Of a stretch of DNA of 64,000 bases, positions 39,001-45,000 are shown piece after piece. The stretch covers positions 1,760,001 to 1,824,000 of the forward strand of contig OY729427.2 of NCBI GenBank assembly GCA_963422375.2. Reading direction: 5' to 3'. A program made the position numbers. Position 1 is the stretch's first letter, and each line of letters begins with the position of its first letter. Source of the DNA: Bryobacterales bacterium (GTDB lineage: Bacteria; Acidobacteriota; Terriglobia; Bryobacterales; UBA6623).

Positions 39001-42000
39001 TGGAACAAGCTCGCCTCGCCGCGGCCCGGCATGCCGTTGTCCTTGGTCCCGCGATCCTGCTCGAGAGTGGTGACGGCTCGCGCGCTCCCGGACCTGAAGT
39101 CGAATAGCATCTGGCCGGTAAGCGCCTCTATCCGTTCGCCCGGCAGCTCGACCGCGATGCGACGGCCGTCGGAGACGATCTTGAGCTCGTCCAAGGGGCG
39201 GTCTATGTGGTCGAAGCGAGTCCTGAGCTGCCGGATGGCCTCGGCGATCTCCTTCGGGGGGATCTGGTGGCTCCGGAGGTTCTGCAGGGTCTTGAGAGAC
39301 ACTAGATCCGTAAAGCTGTATCCCTCCTGCGCCGCGGTCAGGCCTGCCCGCTCCCAGGAGCGCAGGCTGTTTTCCTTGATGCCCAGGATCCGACGGATCT
39401 CGGACCTTGTGTAGGTATCGGAAGTCTTTTCAGACTCCACGTAGCGAGTATAGCGCGGGCTGGGGCCGAGCTTGTCCCTCGCCGAGCGCGGGGAATCGCG
39501 ACGATACTGGCCGCCTAGCCCCGTTTCGGGCCGCCTGCCCTCGCGGCGATGGCCCCGCCCGCTCCGGCCGTCAGGACCAGCAGCAGGGCTTCGAAGGCCA
39601 TGCTGAACGCCATCATCATCGCGAATACCGCGGGATCTTCCAGCAGGCGCTGGACTTCCGATCCGAGGCCGAGGCTCTCGACTTGGTCTCGCATCGGTCC
39701 GAGGATCGCTTCGCGGCCCTGCGTCGCGAGAACCGAGACCAGCAGCAAGAACGAGGGCACGAAGCAGGCCAGGCCGGTCAGGGCGCCGATGCCGAATCCC
39801 TGCCACCCGCCTTGCGCGACGGGGTGGCGCTTCTCGAACCGCCGCACGGCCAGGAAGCCGGCTCCGCCCGGGACCAGGTAGCCAAGCCACGCGAAGAGAG
39901 CGCCGCCGCCCAGGATGGCGAGACGCACGCAGACGGCGCCCAGCGCCGGCAGGAACGCGGCCCGGACATACGCGTCCATGCCGGGCGGCAGCTGCGCGCT
40001 CGGCTCGTCGCGAGCCTCGAAGGCCCGCTCGAAGGGCTCGCCGATCCCCGCGTGCAGGGGCCGCCCGCAGCGGGGGCAGAACGACGCCCCGTCCGGCAGG
40101 GGGCTGCCGCAAGTGCAGTGAGCGACCATCCGACCGGGACTCGAGGCAGGCGGCGGGCCTCGATCCCTACAAAGATTGTATTCCCGGGCCGCTCCCTGCC
40201 GGGGACGGCGCGCCGGCGCGCCCTGTTGGCAGCCTACGTTTCGACCGTGCGCACGATCCTGAGGATGTGCGCGCCGTACCTGCCGGCGACCGACGGACCC
40301 ACCCCGGGCGCGGACAGCAGTTGCCGCTGGTCTCGCGGCTTGGAATCGGCGATCCAGTCGAGAGAGCGGTTGTGCAGGATGACGTACGGCGGTTTCTTGG
40401 TCCTGGTCGCCTCCTCCTTGCGCCAGGCGCGCAGGGCGGAGCGTATCAGCTCGCTCGCCGCGTCCGGGGCGGGCACGTTGTCCAGCCCGAGCCGCGAGGC
40501 GGGGGCCGGCCCGTCGGGCCGGGCGCGTCGGCGCGAGGTCGAGCTCTTCCGGCCGGCGCGCTGCTTCGCGGGGCCGGCTAGGCCGGCCCCCTCGGCCGGG
40601 AGCCGCACTTCGCTCCCCGGGCGCGAGGCGCTCCTCCCGGAATCGGTCAGGCACAGCCTGCGGAACTCGATGCGCTCCTGCTCCTTGTTGACGAACGAGT
40701 CGTTCTCCACCCGCGCCAGCCCGGCGGCCGCGATGGCGTCGACCAGTCTCTCGTAGGCCCTGCGCTCCATCCGGCGCGTTTCCGCGTGCTCGCGGAACAG
40801 CTTCCCCACGGACTGCCCGTCCCGCAGCCGCAGCGATCCGAGCACCTCGCCCACGACCTGCGCTTCGATGGCCGTGGGTTCCCGGAACGTCTTGAGCGCG
40901 CAGGACGACGGCTGGCAATTGTCGCACCGCCCGCACGGTTTGAGGGAGTCCTCGAGGTCGCCGAAGTGGCGCACGAGGTCGAGCATGCGGCAGTCCTGGG
41001 AGCGGGTGAATTCCCAGACCTGGTTCGTCTGGGCGATCTTGTGATCGCGCTGGCGGACGTAGCTGTCCAGCCAGCGGTCTTCCCCGCGGGTGGCGTTCTC
41101 GTCCGCGTCGATGCGGATGCCGCCGTGGATCCACATCTTCTCGACCGCTTTCTCCAGTTTCTGGAAATCGCCGCCGAACAGCCCGAGGAGGTCCGCCACG
41201 GGGCGCGCTTCGGCCGAGAGCTGGCCGAAGAGCGTCTCCAGCGCGCTGGGCTCGGGATAGTCGCGCTCCAGGAAGAACTCGTGCGTCTTGCGGTCGATCC
41301 AGGAGTAGAGCAGGACCGCCTTCGACGGCTTGCCGTCGCGCCCGGCGCGCCCGATCTCCTGGTAGTACCCCTCGATCGACCCCGGCAGGCCCGTGTGAAC
41401 GACCGTGCGCACGTCGGCCTTGTCGATGCCCATGCCGAAGGCGATCGTGGCGACGATGATGTCGATCTCGCCCTGCAGGAACGATGCCTGGACGCGGTCG
41501 CGATCCTCGGCGGGCATTCCGGCGTGGTAGGCGGCGACCTTGTGGCTCGCCGCGAGTGCTTGCGCCTGCTCCTCGGACGCCTTGCGAGTCGGGGCGTAGA
41601 CGATCGCCGGTCGCCGGCCCTCGTCCTCGAGCAACCGCACGAGGGCGGGCGGCCGCAGCTTCGGCACGAGCTCCACCAGTTCGATCTGGAGGTTCTCCCG
41701 CCGGAAGCCGTGGATCAGGCGCCGGCAGTCCGCGAGGCCTAGCTGCTCCGCGATGTCGTCTTGGACGCCCGGCGTGGCCGTCGCCGTCAGGGCGATGACC
41801 GGCGCGGGACGCAGCGCCGGCACGCGGTCGCGCAGCCGCCGGTATTCCGGCCGGAAGTCGTGCCCCCACATCGAGATGCAGTGGGCTTCGTCGATCGCCA
41901 CTAGTCCGGGAGCCCGGCGCGCCAGCAGCTCCGGAAAGCCCGGCACCGCCAGGCGCTCCGGGGCGATGTGCAGGAAGTCGAGCTCCCCGGCTAGGTAGTC

Positions 42001-45000
42001 CTGGCAGACGCGCCGGGACTCGAGCCGGTCGCGGCCGGAGTGGATGCGCTCGGCGCGGAAGCCCTGCTGCCGCAGCTTCTCGGTCTGGTCCTCCATCAGG
42101 GCGATCAGCGGGCTGATCACCAGTGTCGTCCCGCCTCGCGCGACGCCGGGGAGCTGGTAGCAGAGGGACTTCCCGGCTCCGGTCGGCATGACGAGCAGCA
42201 CGTCCTCGCCCGCGAGGACCTGCCGGCAGGCATCCTCTTGGTGCGGCCGGAACGCGTCGTGGCCGAAGCGCTCCCTCAGCAGGGTTCGCATCCGCCCGGG
42301 GGAGGTCGGCGCAGCGCTCGGCCCCGACGCGGACAGGCGCGCGGCGTGCGGCCCGTCCGAACCGCCCGACGGCTCGCGGTCGCGGGCCTGTCCGCGGCCC
42401 CCCTGCCCCTCGGAGGCGGCTGGCGCTGTCCGGCCGTTCGGCCCGGGCTGCTGCGGCCTTCCGAGAGGGCCGGCCGCGCGGTCGGTGCGCTGGGAAGCCG
42501 CCGCGGGAGCCGCGTGTTCGGCACTGGGCCCTCGCGCCGCGGCGGGCGGCTCGTCGCCGCCGAACGGCGCGTCCGGCGCCCCTGGGTCCGGCCGCGCCCG
42601 AGCCGGCGCGGAGCCGTTCGCGCCGACGACCTCGCGCACGAACTCCTCGATGCCTCGCATGAACGCGTCGAAGCCCCCGTCGCCCCGCTCGATCTCGCGG
42701 AGCTGCGACTCCCACTCTCCCGTCATCGCAGGGCTGCGGACCTTCGGGTGGACGATCTCCAGCAGGCGGATGCCCTTGTCCGTGGCGCTCAGCTGCTTCT
42801 TGTCGCGACGGGCGTACTCGCGCTTGAGCAGCGTCTCGATGATCGACGCGCGGGTGGCCGGGGTCCCGATCCCGCGCTCCTTCATCGCCTCCGAGAGCTG
42901 CTTGCTGTCGAGCGTCTTGCCCGCCGATTCCATGGCGGTCAGCAGGGTCGCCTCGGTGAACCGCGCGGGCGGCCGCGTCCGCTTCTTCAGCGCCTCGGCC
43001 TTGGCCACCTTGACGCGCTGCCCCTCTCCCAGCCCGCCCGGCAGCTGGGGCTCTTCGCGGCGCTTGCCCGCCGTCTTGATGTCGAGCACCTTCCAGCCTT
43101 CCTCGTCCACGGCCGTGCCGGCGGACAGGTACTGGTCGGCGTCCGCCTTGCACGCGATCCGGGTGATCACCGTGGTCGCGGAGTACTTGTGGTCGCCGTG
43201 CCACGCCTGCAGGAGGCGGCGGCTGATCAGGTCGAGAATCTTCTCCTCCGCCGAGCCGCCCGCGACGCCCTGCGCCGCGCCGGTCGGCACGATCGCGTGG
43301 TGGTCGGTGACCTTGGCGTCGTCCACGAAGCGCTTGCCGAGCGGCCGGTCGCCGGTCCCCTCGGCGATCGCCGCCGCGTCGTATCCGCTCGCGACCCGCT
43401 TCGCGACGGCGCCGACGCCGCTCGCGACCTCGCTCGACAGATGCCGGCTGTCGGTGCGGGGGTAGGTGATCGACTTGTGCCGCTCGTAGAGCTGCTGGGC
43501 GAGCGCGAGCGTGCGGTCGGCGCTGTATCCGTACAGCCGGTTGGCGTGCCGCTGCAGCTCGGTCAGGTCGTAGAGCAGAGGGGGGGGCAGGCGCTTGTTG
43601 GCCTTGCGGATCGACTGGATGTCGGCCTTGCCGACGGCGGCGCGTTCCACTACGGCAGCGGCCTGGTCGCCGTCGGCGGGCAGGCGGGTCTGGCGCTTGC
43701 CCTTCACCAGCCTGAAGTAGGTGCCGCGGTAGACCCGCCCCTCGCCCGCGTCGAACTCCGCCTGCACCTCCAGGTAGTCCTCGGGCACGAAGTTGCGAAT
43801 CGCCAGCTCGCGCTCCACCAGCATGGCCAGCGTGGGCGTCTGGACGCGGCCCACGGAAAGGACCTCGTCGCGGTCGATCGAGTAGACCCGCGTCAGATTC
43901 ATGCCGACCAGCCAGTCGGCCCGGCTGCGCGCCTTCGCGGCAGACGCGAGATCGTCGAACTCGCTGGAAGGGCGCAGCTGCTCGAAGCCCCGGCGGATGG
44001 CGTCGCGCGTCAGGGACGAGATCCACAGCCGGTCCACGGGCTTGTCGCAGCCCGCGGCTTCGTAGATCAGGCGGAAGATCAGCTCGCCCTCCCGCCCGGC
44101 GTCGGTGGCGCAGACCACCCGCCCGATGCGCTGGTTCGTCAGGATTTTCCGGACGACCTCGAACTGGTCGCTCCGGCCCTCGTCGACCCGCAGCGGCCAG
44201 CGGGACGGCAGCATCGGCAGCGTGGACCGCCGCCACGCCTTCCACTGGGGATCGATCTGGTGCGGTTCGGCGAGCGCCACCAAGTGGCCGATGGCCCAGG
44301 TGACGACGAAGCCGTTGCCGGCATAGTACCCGTCTCGGCGAGTGGACGCTCCCAGTGCCGCCGAGATATCCCGGCCTACGGACGGCTTCTCGGCGACGAT
44401 GGCGGTATGCGTGGCTGGCCCGCGATGCACAGGTTACACGCTCAGTGTAGCGCCGCGACGCGGCGGCGGGGCTACACTTGGAGGCTCGCTGCCTCATGAC
44501 CCGCCATGGCAGAGTCGCGCTCGCGGGCCGTCCCCGCCCGGCGGTCGCGCGGCGACCGCTCCGCCGGGGATCGGGCGCGTGAACCGGCTGGCCGAGCGGA
44601 TCCGCGCCGGCGATCCGCGCGCCCTCGCCCGCGGCCTCAGCTGGGTGGAGAATCGCGCGCCGGGCTCCGTCGGCCTCCTGCGCGCCCTGCACAGCCCCGA
44701 GCGCCGGGCCTTGCGGCTCGGCATCACCGGGGCGCCGGGCGCCGGCAAGAGCACCTTGGTGGACTGCGTGGTCCGGCTCCTGCGCCGGGAGGGGCGGTCC
44801 GTCGCGATCCTGGCCGTGGACCCGAGCAGCCCGTTCAGCGGCGGGGCGGTCCTCGGCGACCGGGTCAGGATGCAGCGTCACCACGGCGACCCGGGCGTGT
44901 TCATCCGCTCGATGGCCTCGCGCGGCCAGCTCGGCGGCCTCGCCCCTGCGGTGGGTGACGCCCTCGCCCTGCTGGAGGCGTTCGGCGCCTTTGCTGTCGT

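Follow-up and report, generated by a model that had tools for sequence, protein, structure and literature searches.

A natural topoisomerase III–RecQ helicase fusion in a Bryobacterales genome and its relatives

Gene and domain architecture

The stretch of DNA analysed here (the window) comprises 64,000 nucleotides of contig OY729427.2 from a Bryobacterales bacterium of the phylum Acidobacteriota. On its reverse strand, among housekeeping neighbours, a single stop-free frame encodes a protein of 1398 amino acids in which a topoisomerase III is followed by a RecQ helicase (Table 1), the natural and complete fusion that the initial annotation had proposed. The contrast between codon positions (GC3 0.93 versus GC2 0.51) is a clear coding signature. 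Along its entire length the gene is matched by contigs from 4 public runs belonging to 2 studies, with 0 differing letters and 0 indels, and in three of the 4 runs a contig of 3499 nt spans the junction from topoisomerase through linker to RecQ; as the best-matching run is possibly the source sample itself, this check is not fully independent.

Table 1. Features of the fusion gene in window coordinates
Feature	Residues	Position	Strand	Basis or remarks
Whole topoisomerase III–RecQ fusion gene		40234..44430	-	1398 codons + stop, GTG start; translation, Pfam, NCBIfam, GC3, contig matches
Toprim domain	10-139	44014..44403	-	Pfam; alignment to 1d6m
Type IA topoisomerase core (Topoisom_bac)	158-591	42658..43959	-	Pfam E 8e-110; alignment to 1d6m
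Codon of catalytic tyrosine	Y323	43462..43464	-	ITYPRTD aligned to E. coli ITYPRSD
Inter-module linker	603-717	42280..42624	-	A/G/P/R/S-rich, unconserved, variable length, disordered
RecA-like domain 1 (DEAD)	728-889	41764..42249	-	Pfam; motifs I and II
RecA-like domain 2 (Helicase_C)	929-1033	41332..41646	-	Pfam; motif VI
Family-specific insert before Zn module	1058-1122	41065..41259	-	Constant 65-68 aa
RecQ zinc-binding module (RecQ_Zn_bind)	1123-1173	40912..41064	-	Pfam
Winged-helix domain	~1187-1261	40648..40872	-	AF2 model and Foldseek
Second disordered stretch, between winged helix and HRDC	~1282-1320	40471..40587	-	pLDDT
HRDC domain	1331-1393	40252..40440	-	Pfam E 1.7e-15; helical bundle in model

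Judged by family profiles, both halves are complete. The protein exceeds the NCBIfam cut-offs for topoisomerase 3 (NF005829, score 642.7, cut-off 597), topB (TIGR01056, 547, cut-off 516) and the RecQ family (TIGR00614, 379, cut-off 220); its score of 470 for the recQ equivalog TIGR01389 lies under the cut-off of 640. All 120 of the listed homologues, at 52–70% identity, carry PF01131 together with PF00270, PF00271 and PF00570, and mean majority identity in their alignment is 0.6–0.9 in both modules versus 0.05–0.17 in the linker. The fusion is natural and conserved, and both halves are apparently catalytically intact. This agrees with the earlier report of intact ITYPRTD, GAGKS and DEAH motifs, which are present here and invariant in the homologues examined (residue conservation was scored over 25 fusions for the RecQ motifs and over 120 homologues for the topoisomerase residues).

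Residues 11–643 align end to end with residues 4–644 of E. coli topoisomerase III (1d6m, E = 3e-88), and the alignment is free of gaps across E. coli positions 500–520, so that the decatenation-loop region is kept. Y323, P324 and R325 are found in 120/120 homologues, the tyrosine being followed by proline as in topoisomerase III. In the Toprim domain, D110, G112 and E114 are likewise conserved in 120/120 and E14 in 113/120, the other 7 being gapped at this position. The motif reads TDAGREGE, with DAG where E. coli topoisomerase III has DPD, and so places a glycine at the second aspartate of DxD. Of 12 stand-alone topoisomerase IIIs from Acidobacteriota, 10 share this motif, and the replacement is therefore probably harmless.

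In the RecQ half, motif I (T750, G751, G753, K754 and S755), motif II (D847, E848, A849 and H850) and motif VI (Q1024, R1028, R1031 and D1032) are invariant among the 25 fusions, as are all four cysteines of the zinc module (C1147, C1166, C1169 and C1172). An AF2 model of this half has a confident fold (pLDDT 87.6), and Foldseek matches it to bacterial RecQ catalytic cores, DNA-bound ones among them (4tmu, E = 3e-34; 1oyw, E = 2e-33; TM(target) 0.72 over ~588 columns). The insert before the zinc module, predicted in the model as three helices and two strands, is not specific to fusions: the spacing from Helicase_C to RecQ_Zn_bind is equal in the stand-alone RecQ proteins of three other genomes (G264, G266 and G373). 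The second disordered stretch has pLDDT <50 at model residues 570–608, and the region around it (1262–1332) varies in length between 54 and 110 aa.

The linker between the halves, previously put at ~130 aa, measures ~115 aa. Its length varies from 32 to 206 aa among the 120 homologues (median 103.5), and it is only ~45 aa long in a relative with a GC content of 0.40.

Distribution, origin and loss

A tree of the topoisomerase halves unites 33 fusions in one clade (SH-aLRT 100), separate from 12 stand-alone topoisomerase IIIs, and subclades are common to the trees of the two halves, a pattern indicative of one fusion event and long joint inheritance. In its own tree the RecQ half is an orthologue of the ordinary RecQ proteins, with HRDC domain, that relatives possess. 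Among 32 long representatives of clusters at 50% identity, at least 30 have the fused domain layout, some being as little as 39% identical to the query. Nor is the fusion confined to Acidobacteriota, the only phylum named for it in the initial annotation: metagenome-assembled genomes (MAGs) with the labels Polyangiaceae, Oligoflexus and Candidatus Contendobacter (Myxococcota, Bdellovibrionota and Gammaproteobacteria, respectively) also contain it.

The two modules have not always stayed together. RecQ orthologues nested in the fusion clade stand alone in four genomes that have no topoisomerase III (G154, G266, G264 and G373), different members of one genus have an intact fusion, a decayed remnant or no copy, and a close RecQ (60% identity) bears a kinase–Sel1 N terminus instead of the topoisomerase. 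The stand-alone and kinase-linked RecQ proteins show that coupling is not obligatory, contrary to the initial annotation. The trees indicate that the fusion arose once and that its topoisomerase module was later lost repeatedly, with RecQ retained. We again found no description of a natural topoisomerase III–RecQ fusion in the literature searched, and the fusion is real, widespread and apparently unstudied.

Topoisomerase complement of carriers and relatives

The source genome (5.996 Mb in 3 contigs, 96.4% complete) has one PF00521 gene, which is GyrA (1144 bits, cut-off 902), one PF00204 gene, which is GyrB, and two PF01131 genes, TopA and the fusion. As previously noted, gyrase and topoisomerase I are present, and no ParC or ParE was found among the matches to the PF00521 and PF00204 profiles; the profiles for topoisomerase IB (PF01028) and topoisomerase VI (PF04406) had no match in the genome. 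The fusion is the sole topoisomerase III and the sole canonical RecQ. The gene listed earlier as a second stand-alone RecQ (g00033) encodes a non-canonical, PsyrT-type RecQ-like protein (PADLOC PsyrT, 964 bits, full length).

Such a complement invites the reading, made in the initial annotation, that the fusion serves Acidobacteriota as principal decatenase and dissolvase in place of topoisomerase IV. The topoisomerase half retains a segment that corresponds by alignment to the decatenation loop of E. coli, E. coli topoisomerase IV mutants can be rescued by topoisomerase III overproduction, and E. coli RecQ, topoisomerase III and SSB catenate and decatenate duplex DNA and resolve converging forks in vitro. 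We nevertheless consider this role unlikely, given its distribution. By hand count, ~303 of the 401 genomes sampled from the phylum have a single PF00521 match (about three quarters; related genomes are not independent, and PF00521 matches are not strict copy numbers), as do 39/39 genomes of the class, including the source genome, whereas the fusion is found, patchily, in 8 of the 401. Moreover, 4 of the 8 carriers also hold a second full-length GyrA/ParC gene (G365, G095, G270 and G361), which in three of them exceeds curated cut-offs for topoisomerase IV subunit A (G365, TIGR01062 parC 1019, cut-off 629; G361 and G270, NF007209 952 and 935, cut-off 644). Conversely, three relatives from the same order (G269, G279 and G360) and two from the same class (G014 and G229), all 99–100% complete, have no more than a single GyrA and a single type IA gene each, the three from the same order having neither topoisomerase IV nor topoisomerase III. 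To judge from gene content, gyrase alone evidently suffices in these five genomes.

Proposed function and comparison with known systems

RecQ and topoisomerase III cooperate on common substrates, and double Holliday junctions are dissolved by BLM–TOP3A–RMI. In our assessment the fusion is probably an accessory, tethered RecQ–topoisomerase III strand-passage enzyme for recombination and replication intermediates, with one origin, repeated loss and no systematic role as a topoisomerase IV substitute. An active-looking topoisomerase III would be joined flexibly, through the disordered linker, to the organism's sole canonical RecQ, whose winged helix and HRDC domain may bind forked, D-loop or Holliday-junction DNA. 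RecQ would spend ATP on unwinding or branch migration and expose single-stranded DNA, and the tethered topoisomerase would cut the exposed strand at Y323 and pass another strand through the break, so that hemicatenanes, double Holliday junctions, late replication intermediates or precatenanes could be unlinked without crossover. The tether may substitute for SSB- or RMI1-mediated recruitment of separate enzymes, and the protein would be a genome-maintenance accessory factor that spread over several phyla. The covalent 'dissolvasome' of the initial annotation is reasonable as a dissolvasome-like reading, but a machine acting in place of topoisomerase IV is not supported.

The two enzyme families are those of the E. 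coli system, whose RecQ core, like that of C. sakazakii, matches the RecQ half in sequence and fold, and the same substrates and chemistry are expected. The E. coli proteins are separate, whereas the fusion is one polypeptide with a disordered tether, in principle needs no SSB-mediated recruitment and has the 65-aa insert. The eukaryotic BLM/Sgs1–TOP3A/Top3–RMI1(/2) dissolvasome likewise pairs an HRDC-bearing RecQ-family helicase with a topoisomerase III-type enzyme, and dissolution of double Holliday junctions and hemicatenanes is presumably a shared task. Its link is non-covalent rather than covalent, sequence similarity of the fusion to TOP3A is weak (E = 2e-15), and the bacterial-type topoisomerase III of the fusion has its own loop at the decatenation-loop position; the genes next to the fusion include no RMI1-like partner.

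Because the linker is long and unconserved and no interface was seen, the two enzymes might instead act independently, the fusion merely securing co-expression and equal stoichiometry. The wide range of linker lengths, the repeated loss of the topoisomerase module while RecQ stays and the absence of motifs peculiar to the fusion (stand-alone relatives share both TDAGREGE and the insert) fit this reading. It is nonetheless improbable, as a fusion of single origin has persisted through several phyla and no fewer than 30 clusters at 50% identity, RecQ and topoisomerase III work on the same substrates, and tethering itself increases local concentration, which is a mechanistic coupling. Less probable again is a mesophilic counterpart of reverse gyrase, in which RecQ translocation and selective relaxation of negative supercoils by topoisomerase III would yield ATP-driven positive supercoiling or another directional change in topology. 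Like reverse gyrase, the fusion unites an SF2 helicase-like part with a type IA topoisomerase on one chain, and both of its modules are conserved; the abstract of PMC7245102 treats reverse gyrase as the unique helicase–topoisomerase fusion, which on that account would leave the activities of other fusions unexplored. The domain order is opposite, however, with the topoisomerase N-terminal as the initial annotation stated, and the reverse-gyrase model TIGR01054 reaches a score of 113.7, far under its cut-off of 471.7. In place of the latch-bearing reverse-gyrase module the fusion has an entire RecQ of processive type, including zinc, winged-helix and HRDC domains, and a long, variable and unconserved linker stands where reverse gyrase has a packed latch interface.

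A mobile or defence component, such as the DpdF-type helicase of a 7-deazaguanine DNA-modification island, is the most improbable of these readings. It is suggested by the patchy distribution in the phylum and by the PADLOC-DB profile PDLC02865 ('DpdF'), which has the same architecture and matches residues 2–1279 over positions 19–1316 of 1499 with 1505 bits. Fusions of this kind have thus been grouped before by automated means, under a library label without a description of them. The NCBIfam DpdF model NF041063 scores only 200.7 against a cut-off of 550, and at the locus 0/24 neighbouring open reading frames (window 14–62 kb) match a Dpd protein and no integrase is found there; a comparison of 9 related loci revealed no conserved neighbour. 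The label itself is unspecific, since other PADLOC 'DpdF' models (610–611 positions) strongly match the RecQ core, and the orthology of the RecQ half to the ordinary RecQ of relatives also argues against a defence role.

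Two enzyme modules in one reading frame

The N-terminal half of the fusion gene product (g01504; residue numbers refer to it, and modules are listed in the table) passes two curated topoisomerase III cut-offs in NCBIfam (NF005829, 642.7 against 597; TIGR01056, 547.2 against 515.75), and residues 4–644 of Escherichia coli topoisomerase III (1d6m) align end to end with its residues 11–643 (E = 3 × 10−88). The catalytic tyrosine, Y323, lies within ITYPRTD opposite the tyrosine of the E. coli ITYPRSD and is followed by P324; a passage of PMC10969213 gives a proline directly after the catalytic tyrosine as a mark of topoisomerase III. 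D110, G112, E114, Y323, P324 and R325 are invariant across 120 aligned family members, and E14 is conserved in 113 of them, the remaining 7 being gapped at the N terminus. The Toprim motif reads TDAGREGE, with Gly replacing the second Asp of the E. coli DxD, as in all 120 fusions. Because 10 of 12 stand-alone acidobacterial topoisomerase IIIs have the same motif, we regard DAG as a trait of the TopB subfamily and not as a defect of the fusion; for the same reason we reject the idea that DAG in place of DPD marks an inactive enzyme. The decatenation loop, which we take to be E. coli topoisomerase III residues 502–519 or thereabouts, falls in a stretch (500–520) opposite which this half has no gap; the corresponding stretch stays conserved across the family consensus and is less basic than that of E. 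coli.

Features of the fusion gene and its surroundings (window or residue coordinates)
Feature	Position	Strand	Remarks
Fusion gene (g01504)	window 40234–44430	(-)	single open frame, 1398 codons, GTG start
Toprim	residues 10–139	(-)	Pfam
Topoisom_bac	residues 158–591	(-)	Pfam, E = 8 × 10−110
Linker	residues 603–717	(-)	rich in A, G, P, R, S
DEAD	residues 728–889	(-)	Pfam
Helicase_C	residues 929–1033	(-)	Pfam
RecQ_Zn_bind (PF16124)	residues 1123–1173	(-)	Pfam
HRDC (PF00570)	residues 1331–1393	(-)	Pfam, E = 1.7 × 10−15
Low-coordinate neighbours			PIG-L, HAD hydrolase, MerR-TPR protein
High-coordinate neighbours			divergent MeaB GTPase, GAF-SpoIIE phosphatase, amine oxidase, URO-D

The C-terminal half passes the RecQ-family cut-off (NCBIfam TIGR00614, 378.9 against 219.8). 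It misses the strict E. coli-type recQ equivalog (TIGR01389, 469.7 against 640.2), which matches in three stretches, the score being lowered by an insert and linkers. Across 25 diverse fusions, motif I (GAGKS; T750, G751, G753, K754, S755), motif II (DEAH, 847–850) and all four zinc cysteines (C1147, C1166, C1169, C1172) are invariant, and motif VI (QxxGRxGRD) is unchanged throughout. In an AlphaFold2 model of this half (24-row alignment; mean pLDDT 87.6, pTM 0.80), two RecA-like domains are followed by an insert that is structured and of constant length (65–68 aa), then by the Zn module, the winged helix, a disordered region and HRDC as a helical domain. Its top Foldseek matches are bacterial RecQ catalytic cores (4tmu, DNA-bound, E = 3 × 10−34; 1oyw, E = 2 × 10−33), with a TM(target) of 0.72 over about 588 columns. 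Majority identity in the linker is 0.05–0.17, against 0.6–0.9 in the modules; its length across fusions varies between 32 and 206 aa, with a median of 103.5, and a relative whose DNA has 40% G+C makes do with about 45 aa. By these sequence measures the linker is a flexible tether and not a domain.

The gene has a strong coding signature (GC3 0.93 against GC2 0.51, within DNA of 70% G+C). In four public runs from two studies, contigs span the whole gene with zero mismatches and zero indels, and in three of the four a 3499-nt contig bridges the junction from topoisomerase through linker to RecQ; the run that matches best may come from the source sample. The fused frame is therefore no assembly or frameshift artefact. 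No RNA run is among those listed as containing the gene. At window positions 41354–41493 each of the four runs shows a 3- to 5-fold increase in summed contig depth, with contig breaks at about 41416–41443. This stretch falls within the conserved Helicase_C region (about residues 980–1026), and its short words are probably common to other helicase genes in the samples. Scanning 39–45 kb of the window returned no promoter-like sites and three terminator-like sites against 1.6 expected, none of them on the same strand at the end of the fusion gene.

Distribution and evolutionary history

In a database clustered at 90% identity, the topoisomerase III–RecQ architecture is present in all 120 matches listed, the window's own protein included; those with names come under Bryobacterales, Thermoanaerobaculia or Acidobacteriota and have no other protein name than 'DNA topoisomerase 3/III'. 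We also searched 1.84 billion representatives clustered at 50% identity with query residues 330–1180. Among the best 150 matches, 32 are 1200 aa or longer, and 30 of these (39–58% identical to the query) carry Topoisom_bac, DEAD and Helicase_C, 19 of the 30 with HRDC at E ≤ 10−8. With one genome per GTDB species, both halves were matched in 13 of the best 80 loci, all from metagenome-assembled genomes (MAGs). Among the labels they bear are Solibacteraceae, Bryobacterales, Terriglobia and Acidobacteriaceae, as well as Polyangiaceae (without HRDC), Oligoflexus (1358 aa, 42% identical) and, twice, 'uncultured proteobacterium'; Pfam confirms the Oligoflexus, Polyangiaceae and one proteobacterial form. 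A 1263-aa form, present on 55 contigs, bears the label Candidatus Contendobacter / Gammaproteobacteria. Because such divergent, low-GC forms exist, the fusion is not peculiar to one phylum, although MAG labels can err.

Nine of the 13 GTDB loci are one open frame. Three others (L072, L090 and L093, all from MAGs) have several frameshifts within domains, and at L069 (CAWBDW010000019.1:3300-9201) the two halves occupy overlapping frames with a lone frame change in the linker, either a true two-gene state or a single indel error of a long-read MAG. For the broken GTDB forms, sequencing error, pseudogene and true split cannot be told apart. Many 'topoisomerase 3' proteins of 580–767 aa are 55–75% identical to the topoisomerase half. 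Two clusters at 90% identity could be resolved, and in both the short proteins are pieces of broken fusions that cluster with an intact form (of 1263 aa or 1386 aa); in one of them the pieces bear consecutive accession numbers. We do not claim a genuine two-gene form. Two other long topoisomerase IIIs were seen: a 1063-aa frame with three C-terminal Toprim_Crpt repeats (L032, G068:C48), and P0204 (1205 aa), a topoisomerase core followed by a tail with no Pfam match at E ≤ 10−8.

To trace the history of the two halves, we built one tree for each. The topoisomerase tree (IQ-TREE quick search, LG+G4) holds 45 rows, namely 33 fusions, 27 of them hand-picked across the identity range from the 120 database fusions, and the 12 stand-alone topoisomerase IIIs of the phylum sample; the fusion of genome G270 was excluded because a scaffold gap of 100 N lies within its topoisomerase domain. 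Every fusion falls into one clade (SH-aLRT 100). The RecQ tree (54 rows; 34 fusions and 20 stand-alone proteins) places the fusion-type RecQs in a 44-row clade (support 100) that also includes 10 stand-alone RecQs; the label 'fusion' needs at least four changes. An AU test run without G154 rejects the grouping of all fused RecQs together (P = 0.018; log-likelihood lower by 81.8), the constrained group having been named only after the tree was seen. The two trees agree in their subclades. They are most simply explained by a single fusion event, after which the topoisomerase module was lost several times.

Stand-alone RecQs of the fusion clade occur in G266 (of the same family as the fusion carrier G365), G264 and G373, each genome with one type IA gene and with no topoisomerase similarity found upstream of RecQ. 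In one genus (g88), G095 holds an intact fusion. The DNA of a second member, G154 (L030 = G154:C33:213000-228000, 7263-8843), is 91–93% identical to it starting exactly at the RecQ start; 169 nt of the G095 sequence are missing from the RecQ part, which has no HRDC match, and the 685 open codons upstream have no Pfam match. From its sequence the locus looks like the remnant of a decaying fusion. A third member, G246, has no match to the whole fusion protein better than E = 10−20. Neither G154 nor G266 is a partial fusion, as there is no topoisomerase similarity upstream of either RecQ. A single cluster representative, P0136 (1400 aa), combines a RecQ that shows 60% identity across residues 706–1395 with an N-terminal Ser/Thr protein kinase and Sel1 repeats in the place of the topoisomerase; it is a case of another fusion partner on the same RecQ lineage. 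Given the stand-alone RecQs, the remnant and absence in g88, and the kinase-fused P0136, these comparisons indicate that RecQ–topoisomerase III coupling is favoured but not obligatory, and the initial annotation's suggestion of obligate coupling goes too far. The stand-alone RecQs of the window's own class form a subclade separate from the window's fusion, which groups with unnamed database proteins (about 70% identity) and Bryobacterales-labelled ones; this placement fits either horizontal transfer or differential loss.

Topoisomerase complement and function

The window's genome (G000; 5.996 Mb, 3 contigs, 96.4% complete) holds a single PF00521 gene, GyrA (1144 against a cut-off of 902), a single PF00204 gene, GyrB (1134 against 796), and two PF01131 genes, TopA (729 against 456) and the fusion; the topoisomerase IB and VI families have no match in this 96.4% complete assembly. 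Family searches thus agree with the earlier inventory of gyrase, topoisomerase I and the fusion. The second, stand-alone RecQ of the initial annotation exists as a RecQ-like gene outside the window (G000 C1, about 27.3–29.5 kb; L006:1399-3534 (+); 711 aa from GTG) and is not an ordinary RecQ: it barely exceeds the RecQ-family cut-off (224 against 219.8) and matches PADLOC PsyrT over its full length (964 bits). Its sequence makes it probably a PsyrTA-type toxin-like helicase; the ORF upstream has no PADLOC match. With this gene assigned to the PsyrT type, the fusion is the sole topoisomerase III and the sole canonical RecQ of G000.

We examined the proposal that the fusion serves in place of topoisomerase IV in 401 evenly sampled genomes of the phylum, among them G000 and the unpublished G049, G024 and G152 (tallies only). 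Whole-protein search found both halves in one frame of 1348–1436 aa in at least 8 of the 401 (G000, G365, G010, G029, G045, G095, G270 and G361), a floor set by a stricter first look in which matches are complete to E = 10−86 and fusion matches are far stronger. PF00521 (E ≤ 10−30) matches in 390 genomes and in none of the other 11; by hand count about 303 genomes have one match and 87 two or more, and each of the 39 genomes from the window's class, among them G000, has just one. Topoisomerase IV absence is therefore the usual state of the phylum, fusion or not. Three same-order relatives and two class-mates (99–100% complete) have one GyrA-type and one TopA-size type IA gene each, and lack both topoisomerase IV and topoisomerase III. 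Among carriers, G000, G010, G029 and G045 have one GyrA/ParC-type gene and G365, G095, G270 and G361 have two, the second being full-length in a focused search. The second gene passes TIGR01062 parC in G365 (1019 against 629) and NF007209, topoisomerase IV subunit A (cut-off 644), in G361 (952) and G270 (935); that of G095 passes NF004044 (770 against 654) but falls just short of the parC and well short of the gyrA equivalog cut-offs. Topoisomerase IV thus coexists with the fusion in half of the carriers, and nothing in the 401 genomes, in which kin are not independent, hints at the negative association required by the proposal. Substitution for topoisomerase IV is accordingly improbable, and how bacteria without topoisomerase IV segregate their chromosomes is left unexplained by the fusion.

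By analogy, the tethered enzymes would probably unlink recombination and replication intermediates without crossover. RecQ would load on forks, D-loops or junctions and drive unwinding or branch migration with ATP; the tethered topoisomerase III would cut the exposed single strand and pass strands; and hemicatenanes, double Holliday junctions and converging forks would be unlinked with no crossover, the tether standing in for SSB- or RMI1-mediated recruitment. We infer this course from the established workings of E. coli RecQ with topoisomerase III and SSB and of BLM–TOP3A–RMI. A predicted complex of topoisomerase residues 10–600 with RecQ residues 716–1124 (25-row alignments each) scored 0.00 and 0.00 (mark 0.32), which gives docking of the halves no support and speaks neither for nor against it. 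Trees and alignments suggest that the two complete, conserved modules were joined once and have long been inherited together, and we give little credence to two independent activities that are merely co-expressed. A directional activity like that of reverse gyrase, the familiar helicase–topoisomerase fusion, is still harder to credit: the helicase module is N-terminal there, whereas here the topoisomerase comes first, and the reverse-gyrase model TIGR01054 scores the fusion 113.7 against a cut-off of 471.7. More ambitiously, and on present showing unlikely, the chain may be a self-contained ATP-driven strand-passage machine with an activity seen in neither enzyme alone. A lone polypeptide might, for instance, dissolve double Holliday junctions or converging forks processively and without crossover; alternatively, it might change supercoiling directionally in mesophiles, much as reverse gyrase does. 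If so, its repeated retention across four phylum-level groups would mark a separate, hitherto unrecognised class of helicase–topoisomerase beside reverse gyrase.

A role in defence or in a mobile element could be read from PADLOC PDLC02865 ('DpdF', 1499 positions), which matches residues 2–1279 (window 40594–44427 (-)) with 1505 bits. Since this model in effect profiles the topoisomerase III–RecQ architecture, an automated resource has already clustered it, and defence finders may flag fusion genes as Dpd components without Dpd context. The protein misses the curated DpdF cut-off (NCBIfam NF041063, 200.7 against 550), none of 24 neighbouring ORFs matches a Dpd protein, and RecQ-size PADLOC 'DpdF' models also match the helicase core strongly. 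The label is nonspecific, and we reject a role in defence. The gene sits among housekeeping genes with no integrase nearby; nine related loci share no conserved neighbours or operon partners, cross-matches being alternative-frame shadows of the fusion gene itself. Within the neighbourhoods compared there is no RMI1-like partner, the OB-fold subunit by which the topoisomerase III gate is completed in the BLM–TOP3A–RMI dissolvasome. A defence or mobile-element component is the least credible of the readings, to the point of being barely worth entertaining.

Significance and surroundings

RecQ–topoisomerase III cooperation is textbook knowledge in eukaryotes; bacterial evidence comes mainly from E. 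coli work in vitro, and the physical link between the enzymes is an indirect one there. As a gene fusion that is natural, old and widespread, the present enzyme serves as 'Rosetta-stone' evidence for a single functional unit of RecQ and topoisomerase III in bacteria. It is fairly surprising and a useful experimental tool, even though replacement of topoisomerase IV is not borne out: its fixed stoichiometry offers a single-chain system ready for biochemistry, single-molecule work and cryo-EM, with the natural linker range (32–206 aa) and natural loss variants as built-in controls. Full-text literature searches, with subscription journals and supplements outside their scope, returned no description of a natural topoisomerase III–RecQ fusion, in agreement with the initial annotation. 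The architecture can be seen in domain databases, as it also noted, and in HMM libraries, PDLC02865 being one such model. The partnership is already known; new, and not described in the literature covered, are its covalent, order-inverted architecture and evolutionary lability. According to the abstract of PMC7245102, hyperthermophiles 'uniquely' fused such units, in reverse gyrase; in a 2024 review of type IA topoisomerase variation (PMC10969213) reverse gyrase is the sole helicase-linked enzyme named and the word RecQ is absent. The fusion qualifies this common view of reverse gyrase as the only fusion of a helicase with a type IA topoisomerase.

Elsewhere in the window, a 295-aa ORF at 49586–50470 (+), between URO-D and an unassigned gene, matches Cas12f/TnpB-type PADLOC models (66.6 bits) and probably represents the TnpB-like relic of an IS200/IS605-type element. 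At 31842–33074 (-) lies an ATPase with AAA_14 and DUF4143 (Pfam) that matches the PADLOC candidate system protein PDC-S01 (234 bits).
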